DNA of 64,000 nt. Source: Eledone cirrhosa (Eukaryota). Within the stretch, counting starts at the first letter, position 1; each line of letters starts with the position of its first letter. The translations under genes were made by a program, and so were the position numbers. The DNA is taken from NCBI GenBank assembly GCA_964016885.1, contig OZ024766.1:11346001-11410000 (forward strand). Reading direction: 5' to 3'. Under the pieces are notes generated by a model, which saw only the letters and a program-made list of their open reading frames with translations, made no database searches and was not told the origin of the DNA. Positions 1 through 52,492 of the stretch are shown here, piece after piece.

Positions 1-1053
1 AGCAGCAACAACAAGATCAACAACAACAACAACAGCAGCAGCAGCAACAAAACATATCCGCTCCCGTAGAAGAGGTGACGTGTGACCTTTTGAATTTGGG
101 AGATGACGCACCAATGCCCACCCCATCTTCTGGCGGTGGGGTCGCGGGTGGAGCAGGAGCGCCGTCGGATCTTTCCGGCCAGATGAACCTGTTGGATATG
201 GGAAGCGACCCAACCCCGATGCCTCCGATGAGTAACTTTGACCTGTTGAGTGGCGTAGGAGGGGTTGGCTCTGTGGGCCCTGCCTCTTCGAGGACCGACC
301 AGGGTCACTCTCATCAGCAGCCTAACCAGAATCAAACGCAGGGCCAGGGTGGTTTAGGGACTTCCGGTTCTACGGGGTCGTTAGGGGCTACAACGTCCTC
401 GTCTTCTCCCCAAAAGAAGGCCCCTGCTACCACTGCTGGTGAACCAAAGATACAGTTCGACAGCTTTGACCCCTTCCAGCTGTCATCCGGAGGGCCCTCG
501 CCCACGACAAACCCCTCTTCAGGGGGTGTAACTCCTGCGATGACGTCGAAACCAGACGACCTACTGTTCAACCTTCTGGACAGCGACCAGAAAAGCTCCG
601 GAGGTCCAAGCCCCAACCCTCAGGGATTGGGGCTGCTCGGTTCCGGTACGACCAATTCGAGGGCTTCACCGACGGTCAGTTTTGATTTGATGGGCTCCTG
701 GGAGGACGGAGGGCTGGGCTGCGGCGGGGGGAAGACGACCCCAACGCCAACGGCCAACCTCAGCGGTTCGACAAGCAACCTCTTCCCGGGCAACCTCCCA
801 AAAAAGAACCCCAGTTTCCCCTCGGGACTGCACCTCCTCAACGCCGGCAACACCACCTCGACCACCTCCTCCAACAACAACAACACCAGCGCCACCTCCA
901 ACGGGGGGCACGGCATGGCTGGAATGTCTCTCGGTGCCAACCTGTTGCGTACCTCATCTGCTGCTGCTTCTATGAACACCATGGGACAGGCACGACTCTC
1001 GCCGGCCACCAGCTTGCAGAACATTGGGTCCTCAGACCCTTTTGCTGACCTGG
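1..1053 (+). CDS. GAK: GAK/auxilin internal exon (5' end outside window): polyQ plus low-complexity clathrin/adaptor-binding region
   Basis: Frame is open from nt 3 (QQQQDQQQ...VTCDLLNL...FDSFDPF...DDLLFNLLD...FDLMGSW...SDPFADL), with DPF and DLL motifs typical of auxilin/GAK. Donor G|GTAAGC at 1054, phase 1, matches the next exon. Confidence 0.85.
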
Positions 1054-1069
1054 GTAAGCTCAATCTATC

Positions 1070-1482
1070 TTTTGTTATATCTTTTCTTTTCTTCTCTTTC
1101 CCCCCCCTCCCCTCCTCTTTTTTATGTCCCGATGAAGGACAAGTGTCTGAAACATTAACTCTTTTTCAACTTTTGTTCCATCTTTTGTTTTCTTTCCGCC
1201 TCTCTTTTTTGTTTTGATGAAGGACTAGTATCCGAAACGTTAAGACTCTTTTCCATCTTTTGTTTTCCTTTTCCCCCCTCTTTATTTTATGTTCCGGTGA
1301 AGGACTAGTATCCAAAACGTTAAGACTCTTTTCCATCTTTTGTTTTCCTTTTTCCTCCTCTTTATTTTATGTTCCGGTGAAGGACTAGTATCCAAAACGT
1401 TAAGACTCTTTTCCATCTTTTGTTTTCCTTTTCCCCCTCTTTATTTTATGTTCCGATGAAGGACTAGTATCTGAAACGATTC
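1070..1482 (+). repeat. Tandem ~80-bp repeat (5 copies), each with a degenerate minimal hammerhead core (PLE-like)
   Basis: Cores at 1129, 1214, 1294, 1374 and 1453 follow (C/T)(C/T)G(A/G)TGA-A-GGAC-TAGT-(G/A)TCC-GAAACGTT. Confidence 0.7.
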
Positions 1483-1548
1483 AATATATTTTCCCTTCCC
1501 CAAAATTGCCAGCCTTGTGTCTAAATCAGAAACCATTATTATTATTAT

Positions 1549-2163
1549 GGTGGTGGATTGACAGTATCGGGAGAAGGTCAGACGCCGTGCCTTGCAGCAC
1601 AGAGTTAAGGCCCTTTACGTTCTGAGTTTAAATCCTGCCGAGGTTAACTTTGCCTTTCATCCTTACGGGTTCGATAAAATAAAGTACCAGTAATACACTG
1701 GGTTAGATTTAATCAACTTTCTTCACTCCCCCCCAAATTGCTGGCCTCATGCCTAAATCAGAAGCCATTATTTATTTATGCAGCATAGAGTTATGGCCCT
1801 TTGCCTTCTGAGTTCAAATCCCACCAAGGTTAGCTTTGCTTTTCATCCTTACGGGGGTTGATAAAATAAAGTACCAGTAATACACTGGGGTAATTGCTGG
1901 CCTTGTGCCGAAAGTAGAAACAATTATTACAGGGTCGATAAAATAAAGTACCAGTAATACACTGGGGTAATTGCTGGCCTTGTGCCTAAAGTAGAAACAA
2001 TTATTACAGGGTTGATAAAATAAAGTACCAGTAATACACTGAGATAATTGCTGGCCTTGTACCAAAAGTAGAAACAGTTATTACGGGGTTGATAAAATAA
2101 AGTACCAGTAATACACTGAGGTAATTGCTGGCCTTGTGCCAAAAGTAGAAACAATTATTATTA
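1549..2163 (+). mobile_element. Two tandem tRNA-derived SINEs with a Nin/Deu-like central domain; the second has four 77-bp tandem copies of its 3' part
   Basis: B-box-like GAGTTCAAATCC; domain GCCTTTCATCCTTACGGGGTTGATAAAATAAAGTACCAG; (ATT)n tails; 77-bp period over 1856-2163. Confidence 0.75.
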
Positions 2164-2199
2164 TGTCTAATATCAAAATAATGTTCTGTTTTTCACCAG

Positions 2200-2325
2200 G
2201 TAACTTAACGTCAATGAAATCACCTGGCAGTACCAGTAATTTATCAGCCACCTCCCCTGCTACAGCATCATGGCAACAAGCCAGCCCTCAACAACCCAAG
2301 ACAGCGTTTAGTGGGTTGTATTCAG
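2200..2325 (+). CDS. GAK: GAK/auxilin exon (126 nt)
   Basis: Acceptor TTCTGTTTTTCACCAG at 2198-2199, donor AG|GTAAGA at 2326; phase 1/1; encodes GNLTSMKSPGSTSNLSATSPATASWQQASPQQPKTAFSGLYS. Confidence 0.8.
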
Positions 2326-2385
2326 GTAAGAGTCAATCTCATATTTTCTCCAGCTGTTCCTAAAAACTTGGCATTTTCCAATATA

Positions 2386-5300
2386 TCATCATCATCATCG
2401 TTTAACGTCCATCTTCCACGCCAGCATGGGTTAGACGGGAATTGTCCCACTTGAGGCAAGATTGGTCGGCTGACCGTGTCTCGCTTGTATAGGACTGTCT
2501 GGCAGGTTTTTTTTACGGCTGGATGTCCTTCCTAACACCAACCACATTTACAGTGTGGACTGGGAGCCTTTTTACTGTGTCTCCTACACGACCACTTTAC
2601 AGTGTGGCCTGGGAGCCTTTTTACTGTGTCTCCTACATGACCACTTTACAGTGTGGACTGGGAGGTTTTTACCGTGTCTCCTACATGACCACTTTACAGT
2701 GTGGACTGGGAGCCTTTTTACCGTGTCTTCTACACGACCACTTTACAGTGTGGACTGGGAGCCTTTTTACTGTGTCTCCTACACGACCACTTTACAGTGT
2801 GGACTGGGAGCCTTTTTACCATGTCTCCTACATGACTACTTTACAGTGTGGACTGGGAGCCTTTTTACTGTGTCTACTACATGACCACTTTACAGTGTGG
2901 ACTGGGAGCCTTTTTACTGTGTCTCCTACACGGCCACTTTACAGTGTGGACTGGGAGCCTTTTTACTGTGTCTCCTACATGACCACTTTACAGTGTGGAC
3001 TGGGAGCCTTTTTACTGTGTCTCCTACATGACCACTTTACAGTGTGGACTGGGAGCCTTTTTACTGTGTCTCCTACATGACCACTTTACAGTGTGGACTG
3101 GGAGGTTTTTACCGTGTCTCCTACACGACCACTTTACAGTGTGGACTGGGAGTCTTTTTACTGTGTCCCCTACATGACCACTTTACAGTGTGGACTGGGA
3201 GGTTTTTACTGTGTCTCCTACGTAACTACTTTACAGTGTGGACTGGGAGGTTTTTAATGTCTCTCCTACACGACCACTTTACAGTGTGGACTGGGAGCCT
3301 TTTTACTGTGTCTCCTACATGACCACTTTACAGTGTGGACTGGGAGCCTTTTTACTGTGTCTCCTACACGACCACTTTACAGTGTGGACTGGGAGCCTTT
3401 TTACTGTGTCTCCTACACGACCACTTTACAGTGTGGACTGGGAGCCTTTTTACTGTGTCTCCTACATGACCACTTTACAGTGTGGACTGGGAGCCTTTTT
3501 ACTGTGTCTCCTACACGACCACTTTACAGTGTGGACTGGGAGCCTTTTTACTGTGTCTCCTACACTACCACTTTACAGTGTGGACTGGGAGCCTTTATAC
3601 CGTGTCTCCTACATGACCACTTTACAGTCTGGACTGGGAGCCTTTTTACTGTGTCTCCTACACTACCACTTTACAGTGTGGACTGGGAGCCTTTTTACTG
3701 TGTCTCCTACACTACCACTTTACAGTGTGGACTGGGAACTTTTTACTGTGTTACCTACATGACCACATTACAATGTGGACTGGGAGCCTTTTTACTGTGT
3801 CTCCTACATGACCACTTTACAGTGTGGACTGGGAGCCTTTTTACTGTGTCTCCTACACTACCACTTTACAGTGTGGACTGGGAACTTTTTACTGTGTTAC
3901 CTACATGACCACATTACAATGTGGACTGGGAGCCTTTTTACAGTGTCTCCTATACGACCACTTTACAGTGTGGACTGGGAGGTTTTTACTGTGTCTCCTA
4001 CACGACCACTTTACAGTGTGGACTGGGAGGTTTTTACTGTGTCTCCTACACGACCACTTTACAGTGTGGACTGGGAGGTTTTTACTGTGTCTCGTACATG
4101 ACCACTTTACAGTGTGGACTGGGAGCCTTTTTACTGTGTCTCCTACACAACCACTTTACAGTGTGGACTGGGAGGTTTTTACTGTGTCTCCTACATGACC
4201 ACATTACAGTGTGGACTGGGAGCTTTTTACTGTGTCTCCTACATGACCACATTACAGTGTGGACTGGGAGCTTTTTACTGTGTCTCCTACATAACTACTT
4301 TACAGTGTGGACTGGGAGCCTTTTTACTGTGTCTCCTACATGACCACTTTACAGTGTGGACTGGGAGCCTTTTTACTTTTTCTCCTACATGACCACCTTA
4401 CAGTGTGGACTGGGAGCCTTTTTACTGTGTCTCCTACATGACCACTTTACAGTGTGGACTGGGAGCCTTTTTACTTTTTCTCCTACACGACCACCTTACA
4501 GTGTGGACTGGGAGCCTTTTTACTTTTTCTCCTACACGACCACCTTACAGTGTGGACTGGGAGCCTTTTTACTGTGTCTCCTACATGACCACTTTACAGT
4601 GTGGACTGGGAGCCTTTTTACTGTGTCTCCTACACGACCACTTTACAGTGTGGACTGGGAGCCTTTTTACTGTGTCTCCTACATGACCACTTTACATTGT
4701 GGACTGGGAGCCTTTTTACCGTGTCTCCTACACAACCACTTTACAGTGTGAACTGGGAGCCTTTTTACTGTGTCTCCTACATGACCACTTTACAGTGTGG
4801 ACTGGGAGGTTTTTACTGTGTCTCCTACATGACCACTTTACAGTGTGGACTGGGAGCCTTTTTACTGTGTCTCCTACATGACCACTTTACAGTGTGGACT
4901 GGGAGCCTTTTTACCATGTCTCCTACACAACCACTTTACAGTGTGAACTGGGAGCCTTTTTACTGTGTCTCCTACACTACCACTTTACAGTGTGGACTGG
5001 GAGGTTTTTACTGTGTCTCCTACAGGACCACTTTACAGTGTGGACTGGGAGGTTTTTACCGTGTCTCCTAGATGACCACTTTACAGTGTGGACTGGGAGT
5101 CTTTTTACTGTGTCCCCTACATGACCACTTTACAGTGTGGACTGGGAGGTTTTTACTGTGTCTCCTACACTACCACTTTACAGTGTGGACTGGGAGGTTT
5201 TTACTGTGTCTCCTACCCGGCCACTTTACAGTGTGGACTGGGAGCCTTTTTACTGTGTCTCCTACCCGGCCACTTTACAGTGTGGACTGGGAGCCTTTTT

Positions 5301-5731
5301 ACTGTGTCTCCTACACTACCACTTTACAGTGTGGCCTGGGAGCCTTTTTACCATGTCTCCTACATGACCACTTTACAGTGTGAACTGGGAGCCTTTTTAC
5401 TGTGTCTCCTACATGACCACTTTACAGTGTGGACTGGGAACTTTTTACTGTGTTACCTACATGACCACATTACAATGTGGACTGGGAGCCTTTTTACCAT
5501 GTCTCCTACATGACCACTTTACAGTGTGAACTGTGTGTTTTTTTTTTGTTGTGACTCCTACACAACCTCATTAGTTTAGACTGGATGTTATGGTACCAAC
5601 ATAGCTTTATAGAGAAAGGGGTGCTGTTGGTGGGAGTAGGGTAGTAGGTTGGGGTGTGTTTGGTATGGAGGGGCCTACTGACTGTAGGTTAACTTTGCAT
5701 GTAGGGAAGGCGGGACTTCTGTAATACTGCA
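2386..5731 (-). mobile_element. Non-autonomous RTE-derived element with a (GAT)n tail and an internally expanded minisatellite
   Basis: (CAT)n-CGTTTAACGTCC tail at 2386, GGATGTCCTTCCTAACACCAACC motif, and 5530-5731 is the reverse complement of the linker seen at 6130-6340 and 8398-8595. Confidence 0.8.
2549..5532. repeat. 48-49 bp minisatellite, about 60 copies
   Basis: Unit CAGTGTGGACTGGGAGCCTTTTTACTGTGTCTCCTACATGACCACTTTA. Confidence 0.97.
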
Positions 5732-5752
5732 TATTATATATATATATATATA

Positions 5753-6555
5753 CGAACAGCAATGCTGCATGGCAGTGAGACCTGGGCATTGTGTGCAGAG
5801 GATATACGCAGACTAGAGAGGAACGAAGCTTGCATGCTCCGCTGGATGTGTAACAGTAATATACGTGAACGGCAAAGCATAAACGAACTAAGGAATAAAT
5901 TAGAGATAAGAGGGATCAGATGTTGTTTACTCGAGAGAAGGCTACGTTGGTATGGACACGTGATGCGCATGAAAGTCGATAGCTGTATAACAAAGTGCAG
6001 GGCAATAAAGATAGACGGTAGTCACGGAATAGGCAGACCTAGAAAAACCTGGGACGAGCTGATAAACTCCGACATCACACACTTACACCTCTCCAAGACA
6101 ATGTCACTGGACCGAGACCTTTGGCGGTACTCAGTAACAGAGAAGACCCGCCTTACCTAAATATATAGTAAAACCTACTCCAGCCAGTAGGCATCTCTAA
6201 CAAAATACACCCCGTCCCACCACCCCCACCCCCACCCGATCCACACCACCCCGTTCTATGTAAAGTTATGTTGGTGCCGCGCCATCGAGGCCGAAACAAA
6301 TGAGATCGTGTAGGTGTCACGACAAAAAAACACACAGTCCACGCTGTAATGTGGCCGTGTAGGCAACACGGTAAAAACCTCCCAGACCCACACTGTAAAT
6401 GTGGTTGGTGTTAGGAAGGGCATCCAACTGTAGAAAACCTGCCAGACAGTCCTATGCGAGCAAGACAATCACTCTTGCCTCAAGTGGGACTACCCCCGTC
6501 CAAACCCATGCAAGCGTGGAACACGGACGTTAAACGTTGATGATGATGATGATGA
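5753..6555 (+). mobile_element. 5'-truncated RTE-clade LINE fragment fused to a SINE-like 3' module
   Basis: Encodes MLHGSETW...RRLRWYGHVMRM...GRPRKTW...DRDLWR (RTE C-terminus), followed by GGTTGGTGTTAGGAAGGGCATCCA and a GGACGTTAAACG(TGA)n tail. Confidence 0.88.
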
Positions 6556-6640
6556 TATATATATATTAACAATTTATATTAGCGAGCTTATACTATTAAG
6601 ACTATGCTAAGATATGTCAATATCTTAGCACCAAATATTA

Positions 6641-6698
6641 TATTTTATCTGATGAAAGCACACAAGATCTTTGTCCTTGAAATACGTATAATGAAATA
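6641..6698 (+). ncRNA. Type I hammerhead ribozyme motif (family B), within a PLE-like AT-rich element spanning about 6570-7186
   Basis: Helix I TATTTTAT(6641-48)/ATGAAATA(6691-98); CTGATGA at 6649-55; helix II AAG.ACA/TGT.CTT; GAAA at 6679-82; palindromic helix III ATACGTAT; predicted cleavage after AUA (6690). Confidence 0.72.
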
Positions 6699-6788
6699 AA
6701 TATGGTATTATAAATGATATTTTCCATTTATTAATATTGTTAATATTAATAATACTCCAGATAACTCTGTAGAGTGCTTCTAATCAAC

Positions 6789-7126
6789 ATTATCATCATC
6801 ATCATCATCATCATTTTACGCCTGCTTTTCCCTGCTTGCAAGGGTGGGACGGGTCTTATTCAGCACAGCATCTCTCCACTTGTCACGGTCCTTCGTCATC
6901 TCCACCGTCAGCTTCAGCTTGCCTCATTTCTCTCCAGCCGTTGCATATCCTCTGCAGTTGCTGCCCATGTCTCACTACCATGCAGCATCGCGCTCCTCAC
7001 ACTGGCATCATATAACCGGCCTTTCGTACCCAGAGAGAAACCCTTCTTCATCAGCAGAGGGAGCAGCTCCCTAAACTTCTTCCTTATTCTAGATACTATG
7101 GCCTCGGAACACCCCTTACCATGCTA
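6789..7126 (-). mobile_element. Internally deleted RTE LINE 3' fragment nested in the PLE-like element
   Basis: Minus strand reads GCSEAIVSRIRKKFRELLPLL...KGRLYDASVRSAMLHGSETW...// ...KDRDKWRDAVLNKTRPTLASREKQA*, then a (GAT)n tail. The host sequence resumes colinearly with the 15089-15290 copy. Confidence 0.85.
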
Positions 7127-7321
7127 ATCTGATCTGTTATAAAAATAACTTCGTTGAATAATCAACAATCCATATAACTCATTGTTTATATATATATATG
7201 TATATATATATATATGTATATATATATATGTCAACATGAATGGACCTATTGTTTTTATCTAAAGACATTTTTTTCCAATTCCACCCCGCCCGTCCCCTCA
7301 ATCTATTTTATTTCTCATTTT

Positions 7322-7435
7322 TTCTTCTGATAAAGGACTAGCGTCCGAAACGTTAACACCCTTTTCCTGCTATATCAAGCGTTAACCTAATATATTCCTT
7401 CCATATACTGTACCGATTGTGTTGTTATTTTTATA
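7322..7435 (+). mobile_element. PLE-like fragment with a hammerhead motif (family A, G8>A)
   Basis: CTGATAA-A-GGAC-TAGC-GTCC-GAAACGTT-AAC. The downstream CTAATATATTCCTTCCATATACTGTACCGATTGTGTTGTTATTT recurs at 10654-10697. Confidence 0.6.
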
Positions 7436-7599
7436 ACCCGTCTAACCCATGCTAGCGTGGAAGAACGGACGTAAAACGGTGATGATGATGATGAATATCT
7501 AATATATATATATAAATATATAATATAATATCTAATATATATATATAAATATATAATATAATATCTAATATATATATATATATATATATATTAAAAAAA

Positions 7600-7825
7600 A
7601 AAACTCACAGTCCACGCTGTAATGTGGTCGTGTAGGTAACATGGTAAAAAGTTCCCAGTCCACACTGTAATGTGGTTTATGTTAGGAAGGGCGTCCAGCC
7701 GTAGAAAGCCTGCCAGACAGTCCTATATGAGCGAGACACGGTCACCCAACCAACCTTGCTTCAAGTGGCACAACTCCAGTCTAACCCATGCTAGCATGGA
7801 AGATGGACGTTAAACAATGATGATA
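7600..7825 (+). mobile_element. 3' module of the RTE-derived SINE-like element
   Basis: CCCAGTCCACACTGTAA...GTTAGGAAGGGCGTCCAGCCGTAGAAA...CTAACCCATGCTAGCATGGAAGATGGACGTTAAAC(AAT)GATGAT. Confidence 0.8.
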
Positions 7826-7837
7826 TATATATTATAT

Positions 7838-8803
7838 GTGGCCGGTGCTCTGGTGCAATAAGTAGCAGCAAGTACCCACAGAACACTAGCTCATTCCATT
7901 GCACAGATGGTTCTATAGAAATAGTGGACAGCTTCTGTTACCTGGGTGACAAAATCAGCAGTGGGGGAGGGTGCTCTGAAAGTACAGTAGTTGAAAGTAC
8001 AGTGTATGATGCCTGCATACGAACAGCAATGTTGCATGGCAGTGAGACCTGGGCATTGTGTGTAGAGGATATACGCAGACTGGAGAGGAACGAAGCTTGC
8101 ATGCTCCGTTGGATGTGTAATAGTAATATACGTGAACGGCAAAGCATAAACGAACTAAGGGAGAAATTAGGAATAAGGGGGTCAGATGTTGTTTACTCGA
8201 GAAAAGACTACGTTGGTATGGTCACGTGATGCGCATGAAAGACGACAGCTGTATAACAAAGTGCAGGGCGATAAAAATAGACGGTAGCCACGGAGTAGGC
8301 AGACCCAGAAAAACATGGGACGACTTGATAAATTCCGACCTCACACACTTACACCTCTCCAAGACAATGTCACTGGACCGAGACCTTTGGCGCTACACAG
8401 TAATACAGAAGACCCGCCTTGCCTAAGTACAAAGCGAAACCTACAGTCGGTAGGCACCTCTAACAAAATACACCCCGTCCCACTACCCCCACCCTATCCA
8501 CACCACCCCTTAAATGTGAAGTTATGTTGGTACCACAACATCCAGTCCGAAACAAATGAGGTCGTGTAGGTGTCACGACAAAAAAACACACAGTCCACGC
8601 TGTAATGTGGCCGTGTAGATAACACGGTAAAAACCTCCCAGCCCCACACTGTAAACGTGGTTGGTGTTAGGGAGGGCATCCAGCCGTAGAAAACCCGCCA
8701 GACAGTCCTGAGCAAGACAACCACTCTTGCCTCAAGTAGGACAATTCCCATCTAGACCCATGCTAGCGTGGAAAATGGACGTTAAACAATGATGATGAAG
8801 ATG
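7838..8803 (+). mobile_element. Second copy of the RTE fragment plus SINE-like 3' module (internal deletion and frameshift)
   Basis: EIVDSFCYLGDKISSGGGCSES//VYDACIRTAMLHGSETW...GRPRKTW; clearly similar to 5753-6555 along its length. Confidence 0.88.
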
Positions 8804-8820
8804 ATATATATATATATATA

Positions 8821-8949
8821 TCACTGAAGCTCACGGAGGAGATGATGAAGGACAGTGACAAGTGGAGAGATGCTGAGCTGAATAGGACCCGTCCCACCCT
8901 TGCAAGCAGGGAAAAGTGGACATAAAATGATAATGATGATGATGATGAT
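8821..8949 (+). mobile_element. Short RTE LINE 3' end (same family as 6789-7126)
   Basis: GACAAGTGGAGAGATGCTG...GACCCGTCCCACCCTTGCAAGCAGGGAAAAG followed by (GAT)n. Confidence 0.8.
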
Positions 8950-8974
8950 ATGAGATATATGTTTGTATTTTCAG

Positions 8975-9175
8975 GTGGTGCTACAACAGGTGGGGCTCCT
9001 GGCTGGCAACAAACACCAAATAGCCAGGTGCCTTCGTCACCCAAGAAACAACAACAACAACAACCCCAGTCAGGTGCCACACAGACGACACATAAAGCAG
9101 CTTTTGGCCCCGGTTCTGGGCCTGGCCCGAGTGTTATTGGGAGCAGAGATGATAGAGGGACTCGTAAGCCTTTTG
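8975..9175 (+). CDS. GAK: GAK/auxilin exon (201 nt)
   Basis: Acceptor TTTGTATTTTCAG, donor G|GTAAGG at 9176; phase 1/1; ends SVIGSRDDRGTRKPF, resembling the vertebrate GAK/auxilin SVIG.REERG...P.F segment. Confidence 0.88.
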
Positions 9176-9277
9176 GTAAGGGTTGTTTCTTTTTTTTTGG
9201 GGGGGGGGGGGGGTATTTTGTTTTTTTTTATTTTGCAGGGGTTGGGTTTTGACGGAAAAATTTTGTATCTGTGACTC

Positions 9278-9990
9278 CTCTCTCTCTCTGTCTCTCTCAC
9301 CCTCTCTCTCTCTCTTGCTTTCTCTCTCTCTCTCTTTCTCTCTTGCTTTCTCTCTCTCTCTCTCTCTTTCTCTGTCTGTCTCACTCTCTCTCTCTCTCTG
9401 TCTCTCTGACCCCCTCTCTCTCTGTCTCTCTCACTCTCTCACCCTCTCTCTCACTCTTTCTCTCTTGCTTTCTCTCTCTCTCTCTCTCTCTTGCTTTCTC
9501 TCTCTCTCTCTCTCTCCTTTCTCTGTCTGTCTCACTCCCTCTCTTTTTCTCTCACACTCTCTCTCTCTTTTTCTGTCTCATTTTCTTTCATCCACCCCCT
9601 CTTTCTCTCACCCTCCCTCTCTCTCTTTCTCCCTCTCTCTCCCTCTAGCTTTCCTCTCTCTCCCTCTCTTTCTCTGTCTGTCTCACCCCCCACTCTTTCT
9701 CTCTGTCCTATCTTTTTCACTTTCTCTCTCGCTCCCTCCCCCCTTCTCTTTATCTGACGTTGGTGGTGGTGATGATGATGTTAGTGATGGTGAATGTGAC
9801 GACCATGATGTTGGTGTTGGCGGTGATGGCGAAAGATGTGGTGTTGATGAGGATGATGATGATGATCATCATCATCACCATCATCACCATCACCATCACC
9901 ACCATCACCATCACCATCATCACCATCATCATCACCATCATCATCATCACCATCATCACCATCATCATCATCATCATGGTGGTGGTAATG
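9278..9990. repeat. (CT)n-rich tract followed by (GAT/GGT)n and (CAT/CAC)n microsatellites
   Basis: Direct inspection of the sequence. Confidence 0.95.
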
Positions 9991-10116
9991 GCGATATGAC
10001 TGACAATCAAATGTTGAATGCCCCCCACTCCCCCCGTCCGTCCCGTCCCTTTCTCGAGCTAAACTAACAAAGGAACAACCTCTCATCTTCTCCCTCGGAA
10101 CTTCCATTCATTCCAG

Positions 10117-10256
10117 GTCCCAAACCTAAAGTCGGTACAGACACATTTGGAGATCTCCTCGGAGGGTTCACTTCCAGGAAGCCCAATGAACCGCGCACAA
10201 TTGGAGAGATGAGGAAGGACGTGCTAGCCAAAGAGATGGACCCGGACAAACTAAAG
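10117..10256 (+). CDS. GAK: GAK/auxilin exon (140 nt) preceding the J domain
   Basis: Acceptor TTCATTCCAG, donor AAG|GTAACC; phase 1/0; encodes GPKPKVGTDTFGDLLGGFTSRKPNEPRTIGEMRKDVLAKEMDPDKLK, matching the GAK pattern KPKV...F.DLL..GF....P.TI.EMRK..LAK..DP.KLK. Confidence 0.93.
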
Positions 10257-10276
10257 GTAACCATAGATGACCCCTT

Positions 10277-10653
10277 TGTTGTTGGTGTTGGTGGTGGTGT
10301 TGTTACTGTTGTTACTGTTGTTGTTGGTGGTGGTGGTGGTGGTGGTGGTGTTAGTGTTGGTGGTGGTGGTGTTGTTGTTACTGTTGTTGTTGGTGGTGGT
10401 GTTACTGTTGTTACTGTTGTTACTGTTGTTGTTGCTGTTGTTGGTGGTGGTGTTGTTACTGTTGTTGTTGCTGTTGTTGGTGGTGGTGGTGTAACTGTTG
10501 TTGTTACTGTTGTTACTGTTGTTGGTGGTGTTGTTGTTGTTGGTGGTGTTGTTACTGTTGTTGGTGGTGGTGGTGTTGTTGTTACTGTTGTTGTTGCTGT
10601 TGTTGTTGTTGTTGTTGTTACTGTTGTTGTTACTGTTGGTGGTGTTGTTGTTA
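10277..10653. repeat. (GTT/GGT/ACT)n trinucleotide tract
   Basis: Direct inspection; begins about 20 nt after the exon donor. Confidence 0.95.
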
Positions 10654-10732
10654 CTAATATATCCCTTCCATATACTGTACTGATTGTGTTGTTATTTCTA
10701 TTTACCTTTTACATATATATATATATATATAT

Positions 10733-10896
10733 ATAGCAGAGTATAACAGTTTTAATATAGATGAGATTCTACAGGACTAGAACTGTTTCATTCATTAGAA
10801 ATCATCAGGAATATGGATTCCTGATGATTTCTAATGAATGAAACAGTTCTAGTCCTGTAGAATCTCATCTATATTAAAACTGTTATACTCTGCTAT
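10733..10896. repeat. Perfect inverted repeat: 80-bp arms with a 4-nt loop
   Basis: 10733-10812 is the exact reverse complement of 10817-10896; loop ATGG. Confidence 0.97.
10816..10864 (+). ncRNA. Type I hammerhead ribozyme motif (family C)
   Basis: Helix I GATTC(10816-20)/GAATC(10860-64); CTGATGA at 10821-27; helix II TTC/GAA with a U-U base; GAAA at 10840-43; helix III ACAG/CTGT around loop TTCTAGTC; predicted cleavage after GUA (10859). Confidence 0.72.
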
Positions 10897-10947
10897 GTAT
10901 TGAGTACCTTACTTACTGTGGTTACCGCCGATTCAACCCGGAATAAC

Positions 10948-11036
<89 letters not shown>

Positions 11037-11038
<2 letters not shown>

Positions 11039-11913
11039 GGGTGTGGACGACATCTGTTTGCAATTTTCAACTGCTAATTTTATGCAAATTGTTTTTACTT
11101 CCGTTGTCACTCTTGTCTTCATAAAAACAGTGACTATATTTCCATTATTTATTTTCAGAATAATTGATTATGAATAATTTTGAACCTCCAAATTTGTGGA
11201 AGAGACACGGAGTTCTTCTTGGAATCCGTGCCGGGAGGACAAATAAGACCAGAAGATCAACTCCCAGAACAACAGGTGGCTCGCTGTCTCATCCAAAGAC
11301 GTGCCCAGAGTCATGCAAACAAAGTTTCCAGTGACAACATTGGTCTTAGGTGTCGTCAGCAGTCAAGGTGACGTCATGCCATCTCACTTCTTCCCTGAGA
11401 GCCTCAAGCTGAACACCGATGGCTACATCCGCGTTCTGAGCGAGGTAGTAAAGCCCTGGATCGACCAGGTAGCTGCAGGTAGGCCGTACGTGTGGCAGCA
11501 AGACTCAGCGCTCTGCCATACCAGCCGAAAGACCCAAGCCTGGCTGTCAGCCACACTTCATCTGACATCTGGCCTCCCAGCTCGCCTGATTACAACCCCC
11601 TCGACTTCTTTGTGTGGGGCGCAGTGGAACGAGACACCAACAGATCTAGCTGCAATACGAAAGATGATCTGAAGGTCAGGATCACAAGTGCCTTTAGGGG
11701 CCTAAGTCGGGGGGACAGTGACGAAGGCCTGTAGCTGGTTCCGAGGCCGCCTTGATGCCCTCATCAAAGCCAATGGCGGGTTTATCGAGTGAGATCGAAA
11801 GAACAAGTCATGAAGACAAACTGACCCAAGTTTGATAAATATATCTTAAAAAATAAAACTACTGTGTTACTTTTTCCTAGACAGTAATATTGCGAACAGA
11901 TATCGTCCGCACC

Positions 11914-11916
<3 letters not shown>
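11037..11916 (+). mobile_element. Internally deleted Tc1/mariner-superfamily transposon, maT/DD37D-like
   Basis: 28-bp TIRs (T)AGGGTGTGGACGACATCTGTTTGCAAT / ATTGCGAACAGATATCGTCCGCACCCTG (24/28 match), inserted in (TA)n. Frameshifted transposase with VWQQDSA.CH and WPPSSPDYNPLDFFVW motifs. Confidence 0.9.
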
Positions 11917-11960
<44 letters not shown>

Positions 11961-12097
11961 AGAAAGGGACACAGCAGTCAACTTGTTGTTGCTACCTAGA
12001 TGAAACCTACTATGAAATCCCACAATTAATTTTATACTTGAATTTTCAAATCTCAAATTTTAACTCTTCGTATTATTAATTTTTCTTAATATTAATC

Positions 12098-12145
12098 AAC
12101 ATTTGAAAAGATGGCTTTTGCAGACCCATCGAAACCGGTCATTTT
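12098..12145 (+). ncRNA. Hammerhead-like motif (family D; U3-A8 variant, weak helix I)
   Basis: TTGAAAA(12103-09)-GATGG...CCATC-GAA-ACCGGT-C; perfect 5-bp helix II, palindromic helix III and a GUC site at 12140. Confidence 0.45.
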
Positions 12146-12359
12146 TTATACCCTTTATTATTTCCTTACCTTATAAAATTATATGTTTTTTCACAAAAAA
12201 GTATTCTGTCTCTTATATATTCCATGTGCCATTACCAACCTCAATTTTCTCTATAACCTTCGTTTTGTGTAAAAAATTACACTTTTCATATATACATATA
12301 TATACATATATGTATATATACATATATACATATATACATATATATATATACAAACAAAA

Positions 12360-12607
12360 AAAAAAAAAAAGCACCCAGCCCACACTGTAAAGTGGACATG
12401 TAGGCGCCACGAAAAAGCACCCAGCACTCACTGTAAATGAGGTTGGTGTTAGGAAGGGCATCCAGCTGTAGAAATCAAGCCAGAATCAGTTCCTGTATGA
12501 GCAAGGCATGGTCAGCCGACCAGACACTGCCCACAACAGGACAACCCGTCTAACCCATGCTAGCGTGGAAGAACGGACGTAAAACGGTGGTGATGATGAT
12601 GATGATG
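12360..12607 (+). mobile_element. RTE-tailed SINE 3' portion
   Basis: GCACCCAGCACTCACTGTAAATGAGGTTGGTGTTAGGAAGGGCATCCAGCTGTAGAAA...CTAACCCATGCTAGCGTGGAAGAACGGACGTAAAACG followed by (GAT)n. Confidence 0.82.
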
Positions 12608-12643
12608 GTATATATAATGAGTGTATATTTGTTTGTGTTGCAG

Positions 12644-12820
12644 ATCATGGAGTGGATAAAGGGTAAAGAACGCAACATCCGTGCACTTCTGTGTTCGCTG
12701 CACACCGTATTGTGGGAGGAAGAAACCCGCTGGAGGGAATGTGGAATGCATGAACTCGTTACACCTGACCAGGTGAAAAAGGTATACAGGAAAGCTGTCC
12801 TATCCGTGCATCCAGACAAG
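12644..12820 (+). CDS. GAK: GAK/auxilin J-domain exon (177 nt)
   Basis: Acceptor TTTGTGTTGCAG, donor AAG|GTGAGA; phase 0/0; encodes [59 protein letters not shown], the auxilin-type J domain with its HPD motif. Confidence 0.97.
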
Positions 12821-12877
12821 GTGAGAGCAGTTTTTAAAGTGTTTATATTTCTCTAAAGACCTTCCATCATAGTTTTA

Positions 12878-15019
12878 TGTGGTCATGCAGGTGTCCCAAC
12901 AAAAGGCTCCCAGTCCACACTGTAAAGTGTTTGTGTAGATGTCATGACAAAAAGCACCCAGTCCACACTGTAAAGTGGTCATGTAGGTGTCGCGACAAAA
13001 AGCACCCAGTCCACACTGTAAAGTGGTCATGTAGGAGACATGACAAAAAGACACCCAGTCCACACTGTAAAGTGGTCATGTAGGTGTCACAGCAAAAAAC
13101 ACCCAGTCCACACTGTAAAGTGGTCATGTAGGTGTCACAGCAAAAAGCACCCAGTCCACACTGTAAAGTGGTCATTTAGATGTCATGACAAAAAGCACCC
13201 AGTCCACACTGTAAAGTGGTCATGTAGGTGTCACGACAAAAACCACCCAGTCCACACTGTAAAGTGGTCATGTAGGTGTCACAACAAAAAGCACCCAGTC
13301 GACACTGTAAAGTGGTCATGTAGGTGTCGCAACAAAAAGTACCCAGTCCACACTGTAAAGTGGTCATGTAGGTGTCAACAAAAAGACACCCAGTCCACAC
13401 TGTAAAGAGGTCATGTAGGTGTCATAACAAAAAGCACCCAGTCCACACTGTAAAGAGGTCATGTAGGTGTCATAACAAAAAGCACCCAGTCCACACTGTA
13501 AAGTGGTCATGTAGGTGTCACGACAAAAAGCACCCAGTCCACACTGTAAAGTGGTCATGTAGGTGTCACAACAAAAAGCACCCAGTCGACACTGTAAAGT
13601 GGTCATGTAGGTGTCACGACAAAAAGCACCCAGTCCACACTGTAAAGTGGTCATGTAGGTGTCACAACAAAAAGCACCCAGTCGACACTGTAAAGTGGTC
13701 ATGTAGGTGTCGCAACAAAAAGCACCCAGTCCACACTGTAAAGTGGTCATGTAGGTGTCGCAACAAAAAGCACCCAGTCCACACTGTAAAGTGGTCATGT
13801 AGGTGTCACAACAAAAAGACACCAAGTTCACACTGTAAAGTGGTCATGTAGGTGTCACAACAAAAAGACACCCAGTCCACACTGTAAAGTGGTCATGTAG
13901 GTGTCACAGCAAAAAGCACCCAGTCCACACTGTAAAGTGGTCATGTAGGTGTCACAACAAAAGACACCCAGTCCACACTGTAAAGTGGTCATGTAGGTGT
14001 CACAGTAAAAAGCACCCTGTCCACACTGTAAAGTGGTCATGTAGGTGTCACAGCAAAAAGCACCCTGTCCACGCTGTAAAGTGGTCATGTAGGTGTCACA
14101 GCAAAAAGCACCCAGTTGATACTGTAAAGTGGTCATGTAGGTGTCACAGCAAAAAGCACCCTGTCCACACTGTAAAGTGGTCATGTAGGTGTCACAGCAA
14201 AAAGCACCCTGTCCACACTGTAAAGTGGTCATGTAGGTGTCACAGCAAAAAGCACCCAGTCGATACTGTAAAGTGGTCATGTAGGTGTCACAGCAAAAAG
14301 CACCCAGTCGATACTGTAAAGTGGTCATGTAGGTGTCACAACAAAAGACACCCAGTCCACACTGTAAAGTGGTCATGTAGGTGTCACAGCAAAAAGCACC
14401 CTGTCCACACTGTAAAGAGGTCATGTAGGTGTCACAACAAAAGACACCCAGTCCACACTGTAAAGTGGTCATGTAGGTGTCACAGTAAAAAGCACCCTGT
14501 CCACACTGTAAAGTGGTCATGTAGGTGTCACAGCAAAAAGCACCCTGTCCACACTGTAAAGTGGTCATGTAGGTGTCACAGCAAAAAGCACCCAGTCGAT
14601 ACTGTAAAGTGGTCATGTAGGTGTCACAACAAAAGACACCCAGTCCACACTGTAAAGTGGTCATGTAGGTGTCACAGCAAAAAGCACCCTGTCCACACTG
14701 TAAAGTGGTCATGTAGGTGTCACAGCAAAAAGCACCCAGTCCACACTGTAAAGTGGTCATGTAGGTGTCACAGCAAAAAGCACCCAGTCCACACTGTAAA
14801 GTGGTCATGTAGGTGTCACAACAAAAAGCACCCAGTCCACACTGTAAAGTGGTCATGTAGGTGTCACAGCAAAAAGCACCCAGTCTACACTGTAAAGTGG
14901 TCATGTAGGTGTCACAGCAAAAAGTACCCAGTCCACACTGTAAAGTGGTCATGTAGGTGTCACAGCAAAAAGCACCCAGTCCACACTGTAAAGTGGTCAT
15001 GTAGGTGTCTTGACAAAAA
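12878..15019. repeat. 48-bp minisatellite, about 44 copies, inverted relative to 2549-5532
   Basis: Unit CCCAGTCCACACTGTAAAGTGGTCATGTAGGTGTCACAGCAAAAAGCA. Confidence 0.97.
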
Positions 15020-15088
15020 GTATGAATTTCAACCGGCGAGGTTGTCTTTTTTCTGTGTATGTCAATATTTATTTATAAAACAAATCTG

Positions 15089-15154
15089 TATTTTATCTGA
15101 TGAAAGCGCACCATAATTTACCTTGGTCGCCCTTGAAATATATATAATAAAATA
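15089..15154 (+). ncRNA. Type I hammerhead ribozyme motif (family B, second copy; element extends to about 15290)
   Basis: Helix I TATTTTAT/ATAAAATA (8 Watson-Crick pairs); CTGATGA at 15097-103; helix II AAG.GC.ACCA/TGGT.GC.CTT; GAAA at 15135-38; palindrome ATATATAT; predicted cleavage after 15146. Confidence 0.72.
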
Positions 15155-15442
15155 ATTATGGTTTTATAAATATAGTTTCCATTTATTAATATATTGTATA
15201 TTTACTCCACTAATCTGTTGAGTGCTTTATATCAGTTATAAAAAATGTTAAGCTTGTTGAATCCCAACAAATTAAATATAACCTCTGCATATATATATAT
15301 ATATATATATCCATATCCAAAATTAAGATAAATTAAATGAATTTAATCTAAATCAAAATTATGGGTGTCATGCCAGAAAGACATGTGCCATATCACCCGG
15401 AAAATAAGCTCCAAGATTCTAACGAGTAGGTCCGAGTATTTT

Positions 15443-15729
15443 ATAATAACTAGAAATTGATTAACATATATATAAACATGAATAATCACAGGAGATAATT
15501 TATACAAGTGTGTAACCACACATAGCTAGGTAGGTAACTAAATAAAGTTGACCAGAACTTCAAAAATAGATACCTTATAATATGATTAATCATATAAGGT
15601 ATCTATTTTTGAAGTTCTGGTCAACTTTATTTAGTTACCTACCTAGCTATGTGTAGTTACACACCTGTATAAATTATCTCCTGTGATTATTCATGTTTAT
15701 ATATATGTTAATCAATTTCTAGTTATTAT
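15443..15729. repeat. Near-perfect 287-bp palindrome
   Basis: Arms of about 142 bp centred on TATGATT|AATCATA, with two mismatches and a 3-nt bulge. Confidence 0.95.
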
Positions 15730-15893
15730 CGGCTGACCATGCCTTGCTCATACAGGAACTGATCTGTAGAAATCAAGCCAGATCAGTTCCTGTATGAGCA
15801 AGGCATGGTCAGCCGACCAGACACTGCACACAACCCGTCTAACCCATGCTAGCGTGGAAGAACGGACGTAAAACGGTGGTGATGATGATGATG
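15729..15893 (+). mobile_element. Truncated RTE-tailed SINE with a 38-bp fold-back inversion at its 5' end
   Basis: 15729-15766 is the reverse complement of 15779-15816; the remainder matches 12467-12607. Confidence 0.85.
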
Positions 15894-15903
15894 ATATATA
15901 TAT

Positions 15904-16242
15904 GGAGGCACATGGCTTAGTGGTTAGAGCATTGGCCTTGCAATCGAAAGGTTGTGAGTTCAATTGTCAGACGGGGTGATGTGTTGTTTCCTTGAGCAAG
16001 ACACTTTATTTCACATTGCTCCAGTTTACTCAGCTGTAGAAATGAGATGATAGGGACTGGGGTCCCTATCATTCCACTGCAACGTGGACGTGGAGGTGCC
16101 ACGGCAAAAAAGCACCCAGCACTCGCTGTAAATGAGGTTGGTGTTAGGAAGGGCATCCAGCTGTAGAAATCAAGCCAGAATCAATTCCCGTCCCACCCTT
16201 GCAAGCAGGGAAAAGCGGACGTAAAATGATGATGATGATGAT
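15904..16242 (+). mobile_element. Full-length tRNA-derived SINE (CORE-like body, bipartite RTE 3' part)
   Basis: A box TGGCTTAGTGG, B box GAGTTCAATT, CCTTGAGCAAGACACTT, RTE-like GGTTGGTGTTAGGAAGGGCATCCAG, and tail GTCCCACCCTTGCAAGCAGGGAAAAGCGGACGTAAAA(TGA)n. Confidence 0.88.
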
Positions 16243-16304
16243 ATATATATGTGTCTGTGTGGTGTTATCTAAATGTTATATTCGGTCTTCTTTTGTATTT
16301 GCAG

Positions 16305-16406
16305 CTGACAGGGACCCCACATGAAGCTTTAGCGAAGTTAATATTTATGGAACTAAATGATGCTTGGGCAGAGTTTGAAGAGAAAGGGATGCAATCGTTG
16401 TACTAG
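16305..16406 (+). CDS. GAK: GAK/auxilin terminal coding exon
   Basis: Acceptor TTTTGTATTTGCAG; encodes [33 protein letters not shown], with TAG at 16404-16406. This is the conserved auxilin C-terminus ([12 protein letters not shown]) and is absent from the ORF track. Confidence 0.96.
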
Positions 16407-39990: not shown

Positions 39991-40669
39991 TCATATATAC
40001 ATACATATATAGACACATATACACATACACATATATATATACACAGACGCATATACACATAGACACATATACACAAATTCATATATAGACACACACATAT
40101 ATACATACATATATAGACACATATACACATACACATATATATACACAGGCGCATATACACACAGACACATATACACAAATTCATATATACACACATATAT
40201 AGACACACACATATATACATACATATATAGACACATATACACATACACATATACACAGACGCATATACACATAGACACATATACACAAATTCATATATAC
40301 ACACATATATAGACACACACATATATACATACATATATAGACACATATACACATACACATATACACAGACGCATATACACATAGACACATATACACAAAT
40401 TCATATATACACACATATATAGACACACACATATATACATACATATATAGACACATATACACATACACACACATATATATATATACATACATATACACAC
40501 GCTCATATATATATATATATACATATACACTCATATCTATATATGTATTACATACGTACATACATATACACACACATGTGTATATGTATATGTATATGTA
40601 TATGTACACACACACGTATATATATATATATATATATATATGGAAAGTATATATATATATATATACACA

Positions 40670-51296: not shown

Positions 51297-52000
51297 TGTT
51301 TCTTTATGAGCCAGAAGGGGACAAATACAAAGGGGGAAGTTTACATACAATAAAACGTGTAAAATGTTATCACAAATGCAATTTAAAAATTAATCTATTT
51401 TCCCCAATAGAGGGAGACATTACATATGGGTAACACATACCCCCGAAAAAATGTGCAACCCTCATCTCCAGGAGTACGAAGAGTTTGTACCCCTTTCCTC
51501 TCTTCCTCCTTTTTCCTCAACCTACAGGTTGATATAGAGAGAAGGCCCATTCACTCGGGACATTCTCGCCACTTTCACCCACCTTTCATAAAACTTGCTG
51601 GGGTACAGCACCTCTCTCTCCATCCTGACTCTTCTTCCAAAGTGGTATTTGAAAAAAAGAATCAGTTGTTGGCCGGAGAGAAAGGTGTCTGACCTCAGCC
51701 CTTTTACCTTGTCCACCATACAACCTCTTTCGCCATAGCTATCACACAAAGGAAAACCGCCTCTCCTTCGTTTTTGAAGGAGGGTGGCGGTTTGATCATG
51801 ACAATGGACTCGGTGGTCAACCGGATTGGTCCCACCCGCGACAATAGTCATTCTACATAGCCCCACAGGTCAGTCATGCCCGGGCAGTGTATGAATGCGT
51901 GCGCGACGGTTTCTTCGTCTCGCACGCATCTTGGACAGCTCTTTTTCGAAGGGTCCCTGCCCGGGCGCCCGTGTCTGTAGAGCTTGTCTCGAACTGGTAG
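51297..52000 (-). mobile_element. 5'-truncated L1/Tx1-clade LINE (ORF2 C-terminus plus 3' UTR)
   Basis: Minus strand reads LPVRDKLYRHG...CPRCVRDEETVAHAFIHC (CCHC knuckle)...AMAKEVVWWTR...FYERW, with stops and frameshifts. Flanked by GGTAGATAGATA at 51285-96 and 51996-52007. Confidence 0.85.
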
Positions 52001-52052
52001 ATAGATAGACAGATAGAGATATTACAGGTAAAAAGGAGAATGAAGGTTTCAC

Positions 52053-52492
52053 CATCATCATAGTTTAATATCCATCTTCCACGCTAGCTTGGGTTAGACG
52101 GGTTTGTCCCATTTAGAGGTAAGTTGGGTTGAGTGACCGTGTCTCGCTCGTTTAGGACTGTTTCTGGCAGGTTTTCTACAGGGGGATACCCTTCCTAGTG
52201 CCAACCACATTTACAGTGAATACTGGGAACTTTTTTACCGTGTCTCCTACACCGACCACTTTACGGTGTTGGCTACATTAGTATCACAAAGCACCCAGTC
52301 CACACCGTAAAGTGGTCATGTAGGAGACACGGTAAAAAGTATCCAGTACACACTGCAAATGTGGTTGGTGTTAGGAAGGGCATCCAGCTGTAGAAATCAA
52401 GCCAGAATCTTATCTCTAAATGGGACAAACCCGTTTAACCAATGCTAGAGTGGAAGATAGACATTAAAAGATGATGATGATGATGATGATGA
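52053..52492. mobile_element. Head-to-head pair of RTE-derived SINE modules
   Basis: 52053-52270 (minus) and 52288-52492 (plus), with tails pointing outward. Confidence 0.85.

Follow-up and report, generated by a model that had tools for sequence, protein, structure and literature searches.

Hammerhead ribozymes in the pLTRs of Penelope-like elements (PLEs), those of Hydra elements included, have already been published. In the passages of Craig et al. (2021; PMC8557442) used here, the Hydra clade is described by DKT, a CxCX5C linker, CxxC/CxH, RWK, a GxKF/Y that is not conserved, the lack of CCHH and insertion into (TA)n, and its elements are generally under 3 kb, as a tendency rather than a strict criterion. 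The supplement gives hammerheads for Hydra families, including Hydra-1_Obim from octopus, and in most of these helix II is plain and helix III has a centre of 1-3 bases. The family described below has in common with the clade, as far as those passages go, a C-terminal GIY-YIG, DKT, CxCX5C, CxxC/CxH and no CCHH, together with a (TA)n target, inverted 5' copies and a sense type I hammerhead near the 3' end. In contrast, helix III here is an even 8-base palindrome, helix II is made of 3 bp, a mismatch and a long stem, the unit is about 4.1 kb long and the motif is RWR rather than RWK; the Hydra-1_Obim hammerhead differs in sequence from the present family when compared by eye.

Other metazoan PLE hammerheads (Cervera and de la Pena, 2014, PMC4209133; PMC6765202; relevant sections) likewise have a pLTR location and a short palindromic helix III. 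The sections of PMC4209133 also describe mostly solo copies, some close opposite-strand pairs, many covarying subfamilies and a predicted action as dimers, all of which are found or proposed here; a schistosome monomer was inactive and dimer activity was low, and the dimer model has been reviewed (PMC6765202, in part). Unlike these hammerheads, the present ones lack a G10.1-C11.1 closing pair (A-U in 24 of 33 representatives) and an extra base before helix II, and their helix I is 8 bp long. The count reported below greatly exceeds the ~9,000 reported for Xenopus in the same sections, the two figures coming from different search methods. In the green anole PLE PAc Poseidon (Frangieh et al., 2024, PMC11167929; passages on the ribozyme and insertion), two reverse-transcription start sites, giving two 3' end points, account for the tail, the target is AT-rich and the hammerhead lies in the pLTR, as here. 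Its cleavage requires the element protein, and insertion in vitro was independent of cleavage. Poseidon belongs to another clade and its ribozyme overlaps the ORF start, whereas the ribozyme lies ~240 bases upstream of the ATG in the near-complete locus L129 described below. Non-LTR retrozymes (PMC7229834; bioRxiv 10.64898/2026.07.22.740005; passages of both) share the type I hammerhead and are short non-coding repeats related to PLE pLTRs. This label was rejected for the present family, whose members are continuous with a coding element and occur as solo or inverted fragments, not in head-to-tail arrays.

The window, a 64 kb stretch of the microsatellite-rich 3.0 Gb genome of Eledone cirrhosa, was scanned on both strands with a type I hammerhead descriptor, and only two matches were obtained (copies 1 and 2; Table 1). 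Both are three-helix junctions with helix I as the open end, and both carry the core CUGANGA, GAAA and NUH. Helix I of copy 1 contains one U-G pair, and the helix III palindromes are AUACGUAU in copy 1 and AUAUAUAU in copy 2. The hammerheads reported at these positions by a sequence-only reading, on the sense strand of one gene, were thus recovered. Rfam hammerhead models matched neither copy (gathering score over 64 kb; E up to 10 over 6400-15400), an Rfam match being a library test and no defining feature of the class. A model built from the 33 representatives matched the two window copies, as it must by construction; the next best hit had E = 0.096. The motif occurs beyond chance: in the genome the 3' half-motif is matched at 40,627 places, its reversed control at 2. 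Minimum free-energy (MFE) folding recovered the active fold for neither copy.

A second, unrelated family of minimal-hammerhead type was noted on the + strand at 1101-1490 and 7317-7365, with an A-GGAC/TCC helix II and an AACGTT palindrome. Its members, an 80-base tandem array and one isolated copy, belong to the same pre-mRNA and are each broken in the core or in helix I; the family is probably the other one of the sequence-only reading. Further hammerhead families were seen in flanks of kin (L072:617, - strand; L075:3342, - strand; others), with CTAG, CGCG, CCACTGG, CCCTAGGG and CCGATCGG palindromes.

Table 1. Features of the window; exon and intron limits belong to a predicted gene model.
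Feature	Position	Strand	Remark
Host exon directly upstream of copy 1 intron	2200..2325	+	AG/GT ends, phase fits; predicted
Intron with copy 1	2326-8974	+	predicted
5' part of solo 3' pLTR fragment, PLE subfamily F1	6579..6785	+	homology to kin
11-bp hairpin	6605..6630	+	holds RTATGTC motif common to other subfamilies
RTATGTC motif, copy 1	6612-6618
Type I hammerhead copy 1, subfamily F1	6641..6698	+	ACGT palindrome; predicted cut after A6690
Copy 1 helix I	6641-6648/6691-6698
Copy 1 core CUGAUGA	6649-6655
Copy 1 helix II	6656-6678
Copy 1 GAA	6679-6681
Copy 1 helix III palindrome	6682-6689
Copy 1 A17	6690
Later insertion splitting F1 fragment	6786..7131	-	LINE-like peptide at 6917-7123
3' tail of F1 fragment	7132..7186	+	(TA)n at 7187-7229 follows
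Host exon between copies	8975..9175	+	AG/GT ends, phase; predicted
Host exon between copies	10117..10256	+	AG/GT ends, phase; predicted
Host exon, auxilin J-domain	12644..12820	+	E 9e-26 to auxilin 1nz6
Last intron, with copy 2	12821-16304	+	predicted
Solo 3' pLTR fragment with tail, young PLE subfamily F2	15024..15288	+	(TA)n at 15289-15310 follows
RTATGTC motif, copy 2	15058-15064
Type I hammerhead copy 2, subfamily F2	15089..15154	+	ATAT palindrome; predicted cut after A15146
Copy 2 helix I	15089-15096/15147-15154
Copy 2 core	15097-15103
Copy 2 helix II	15104-15134
Copy 2 helix III palindrome	15138-15145
Copy 2 A17	15146
Last coding exon, auxilin/GAK-like	16305..16406	+	E 5e-10 to auxilin
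Helix II position 4 mismatch	6659/6675 and 15107/15131

The host gene model was built from auxilin matches, AG/GT exon ends and fitting phases, and one further putative exon, with AG/GT and fitting phase, ends at 1053. The model places both copies on the sense strand in two introns of one auxilin/GAK-like gene, separated by 8.4 kb and three exons, and so supports their presence in one pre-mRNA, as had been claimed. Window positions 3-16406 make up the 3' end of this gene, whose exons are rich in glutamine and of low complexity; tandem repeats occupy about 66% of the window. The host introns also hold long near-perfect inverted repeats at 10771-10859 and about 15470-15730. Coding fragments lie at 5705-6157, 7795-8423, 11247-11731 and 51525-52083; we take them to be LINE-like and Tc1/mariner-like, and the three of them tested gave no Pfam match.

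Homology to kin assigns each copy to a solo 3' pLTR fragment of a PLE, and copies 1 and 2 to separate insertions of two subfamilies, F1 and F2. The sequence-only reading had treated copy 1 as the original and copy 2 as its diverged duplicate; the kin replace this with independent insertions. Candidate kin of copy 1 with its flanks numbered 2,385 at first look, and among the 40 of them that were scored the main matches were 88-95% identical; for copy 2 the 40 scored out of 2,463 candidates were 97-99% identical. 30 loci per subfamily were kept for context analysis. Inverted partners, at distances of up to about 700 bases, accompany 8 of 30 F1 loci and 17 of 30 F2 loci, and the inverted copies stop about 90 bases before the end of the long copies, matching the 'tail' pattern of PLEs. 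(TA)n follows the long F2 ends in 32 of 32 cases and both window copies likewise. The insertion that splits the F1 fragment, presumably an RTE element, encodes a LINE-like peptide with no Pfam match. The commonest subfamily by half-motif matches, GCGC (23,403), is absent from the window (examples are L137 and L061:3403-3473); its helix II is longer and its flanks are different.

The parent element was traced through kin loci. Two F1 loci have an endonuclease-like ORF, one of which served as the seed protein. At the 30 best loci of the F1-type endonuclease the hammerhead repeat lay downstream on the same strand in 19 (the seed among them), downstream on the opposite strand in one, upstream on the same strand in none and upstream on the opposite strand in ten. 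The corresponding counts for 30 loci of the F2 endonuclease were 10, 0, 2 and 8, obtained with 1.5 kb flanks that, against a UTR of 1.45 kb, are too short for most 3' ends. In the near-complete locus L129, two pLTRs flank a broken RT-EN ORF and the 1.45 kb UTR that follows it, and a further pLTR is inverted. A single ORF with RT and GIY-YIG endonuclease was found in L129, L127 and L128, in all three broken by stops or frameshifts; it belongs to these kin loci, the window itself being without it. The L129 ORF contains RWR, DKT, YRDD, CxCX5C, and CxxC and CxH around E/N; GIY and YIG have one cysteine between them, CCHH is absent and the endonuclease lies at the C-terminus. RWR is also present in L131, against RWK in the Hydra description, and the N-terminus is frameshifted. 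The pLTRs are direct tandem and inverted with a tail at one end, a PLE feature, and the unit of about 4.1 kb, its length due to the 1.45 kb 3' UTR, exceeds the size general in the Hydra clade. Pfam matches on the ORF stayed below cut-off (RVT_1, E = 0.017; GIY-YIG, 21.8 bits against 22.6), and the element protein fragments P0001 and P0002 gave no Pfam match. On its motifs the element is provisionally assigned to the Hydra clade of PLEs, an identity absent from the sequence-only reading. The labels Neptune and Naiad, also considered, were dropped in view of the C-terminal endonuclease and the CxCX5C linker. Contig depth summed over runs X1-X3 (L129:5400-6350) was hundreds of times or more higher over the pLTR than over the ORF, which fits the dominance of solo pLTR fragments, depth being no copy number.

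Some PLEs have an intron in the pLTR or 5' UTR, and one containing the ribozyme is possible in the 5' region of L129, to judge from short motifs. In 21 of 33 representatives RTATGTC precedes helix I by 17-36 bases; it takes the splice-donor-like form GTATGT in 15, has A or T at +1 in six and is missing in 12. Four AUGs occur between this motif and the ORF start in L129 (6212-5929, - strand), and the ATG is preceded, at 41 bases, by TTTAG. Contigs of three runs (one sample, run kind unstated) contained no joint that fits the candidate intron, a result uninformative either way.

The two copies differ in condition. Copy 1, called intact in the sequence-only reading, has a private G at 6693, which forms the G-U pair, and another at 6628, which perfects the 11-bp hairpin (each in 0 of 33 kin). 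It has also lost two bases after 6671, present in 32 of 33 kin, and with them part of helix II; because of this loss its ACA/TGT interior is read as the remnant of a 7-bp stem, and on comparison with kin copy 1 is decayed. The G-U against A-U difference in helix I, listed earlier with the changes that keep pairing, is therefore a private mutation of copy 1 and no selected covariation. Its active monomer fold had an energy of +2.5 kcal/mol, against -3.8 and -4.2 kcal/mol for two kin. Copy 2 equals the family majority over the whole ribozyme and differs at four bases upstream of it only. As 43 of 45 kin of copy 2 have ATAT, its palindrome did not arise by CpG decay in place, as had been considered. 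In copies picked by similarity alone, the core was intact in 28 of 34 F1 and 43 of 45 F2. The hairpin itself is present as described, but its perfect pairing is no family trait, being found in three of 34 copies (copy 1 and two rearranged ones), while 25 of 34 have 8-9 Watson-Crick pairs. It was rejected as a conserved element; the apex motif alone is common and covariation was not seen.

Selection on structure was assessed on 152 copies in 33 clusters, drawn from 164 loci by a pattern in which the core, helix I and the outer palindrome were fixed; owing to overlapping loci, some copies are counted twice. In the 33 representatives 97.1% of cells were paired, against 92.7 +/- 0.5% after shuffling and 33-58% after sliding. 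Two-sided changes were found at six pairs (a number reached in 3 of 500 shuffles), one in helix III and five in helix II, the latter at five of six helix II pairs; these are raw change counts with relatedness uncontrolled, and helix I, fixed by the pattern, is uninformative. The number of further pair types showed no excess over shuffles (222/500). All core positions were kept across the representatives except for one C3U, the core being required by the pattern. Helix II position 4 was unpaired in 152 of 152 copies, always as a pyrimidine-pyrimidine mismatch flanked by covarying pairs.

Helix III was examined genome-wide with the 3' half-motif (22 letters, four left open, 3' half only), which misses copy 1 because of G6693. 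Its interior was GCGC in 23,403 matches, ATAT in 8,206, ATGT in 5,684, ACGT in 672 and ACAT in 75, the residual 2,587 forming one undivided class of other interiors. Self-complementary interiors (GCGC, ATAT, ATGT and ACGT, with G-U allowed) thus account for 37,965 of 40,627 matches, or 93%, a figure that counts copies and not independent events. Neutral CpG decay of ACGT would give ATGT and ACAT equally; the 76-fold excess of ATGT therefore implies that source elements amplified ATGT but not ACAT. ATGT still pairs through G-U and is seen with several helix II types. In this imbalance the double-hammerhead model has direct support from the genome. Together with the helix II changes, the self-complementary interiors bear out, at the level of sequence comparison, the earlier view that structure is selected in the source elements.

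Nearest-neighbour energies were calculated with core and tertiary contacts left out. Helix III can form about 2 bp in the monomer, and active monomer folds lay 3.7-6.0 kcal/mol above the MFE, whereas homodimers gained 3.9-11.5 kcal/mol over two folded monomers. Our main reading, held at a probability of about three in four, is that these hammerheads derive from the pLTRs of Hydra-type PLEs and cleave only as matched doubles, lone intronic copies being silent. The source element would be transcribed as pLTR-ORF-pLTR, and two identical hammerheads in the tandem element RNA would pair through the 8-base palindrome, possibly helped by the element protein, and cut after AUA, releasing unit-length RNA. 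The element endonuclease would nick (TA)n. Reverse transcription would have two alternative start sites 3' of the ribozyme, with ends near 15198-15204 and 15288, and would usually halt early, leaving solo or inverted pLTRs. As genomic copies retain the cut site, the copied RNA would be uncut or religated. Copies 1 and 2 are probably silent passengers of the auxilin-like gene.

The monomer may instead be active in vivo, through a tertiary contact or a protein chaperone, with copy 2 cutting the last intron of the host pre-mRNA. The contact would join a distal extension of helix I to the fixed helix II mismatch, and such a reading draws on the majority sequence of copy 2, on a 12-bp distal stem (about 15069-15080 with 15161-15172; z -2.8) that closes copy 2 and extends its helix I past an internal loop, and on the pyrimidine mismatch that all 152 copies keep amid covarying pairs; protein-assisted cleavage of a PLE hammerhead is also on record (PMC11167929, passages on cleavage). 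Yet a monomer loop has no need of the inner self-complementarity found in 37,965 of 40,627 matches, and the distal stem is weak in GCGC, the commonest subfamily (-2.9 to -6.1 kcal/mol), so that we consider monomer activity unlikely. That the structure is kept as a non-catalytic handle for the RT-EN protein or for RNA dimerisation, cleavage being incidental, would agree with the retained cut site, with the near-invariant sequence of helix I among pattern-selected copies and with the undiminished insertion in vitro of anole catalytic mutants (PMC11167929, passages on insertion). The near-complete conservation of the core speaks against it, both across the 33 representatives, where the pattern required it, and in the F1 and F2 copies picked by similarity, and we rate this handle as distinctly improbable.

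Regulation of the host gene by a heterodimer of copies 1 and 2, which the sequence-only reading found conceivable with a mismatch, has in its favour that both copies are sense in one gene, that their helix I strands are cross-compatible and that seven of eight palindrome positions pair. The predicted mismatch is there, a single C-A, but folding is predicted to be unfavourable, at +1.1 kcal/mol relative to two folded monomers; 8.4 kb and three exons intervene, copy 1 bears private damage, and at a genome-wide density of one match per ~74 kb a long gene is expected to hold two copies by chance. We give this arrangement very little credence. Hardly tenable at all is the view of a single old duplicated repeat whose pairing survived CpG decay by chance: formally, two CpG transitions turn ACGT into ATAT, and AT-rich stems pair readily, but the counts of ATGT and ACAT contradict it, GCGC cannot be derived from ACGT by CpG loss, and helix II has two-sided changes.

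Literature searches combining hammerhead or Penelope with octopus or cephalopod, which took in passages of PMC13282606 and PMC6962438 and few subscription papers, returned no text that describes the family, gives its copy number or mentions the helix II mismatch. The new details are a copy number of ~40,000 and the invariant helix II pyrimidine mismatch (152/152), although they may already be in print. More speculatively, and with the odds well against it, the helix III palindrome could be a subfamily pairing code that limits cleavage to like with like, with the helix II mismatch an undescribed tertiary or protein contact. If so, the GCGC, ATAT, ATGT and ACGT subfamilies would cleave with their own kind only, many long host pre-mRNAs with two sense copies of the same code would be cut or circularised intramolecularly, and mismatched sense pairs, such as copies 1 and 2 of the window, would be tolerated.

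The window copies are ordinary transposon debris of a known class, in a family that Rfam misses entirely. With 40,627 half-motif matches in the genome, one hammerhead is available in a very large series of natural mutants, and the family makes the role of PLE hammerheads testable, including the purging of matched intronic pairs from host genes.
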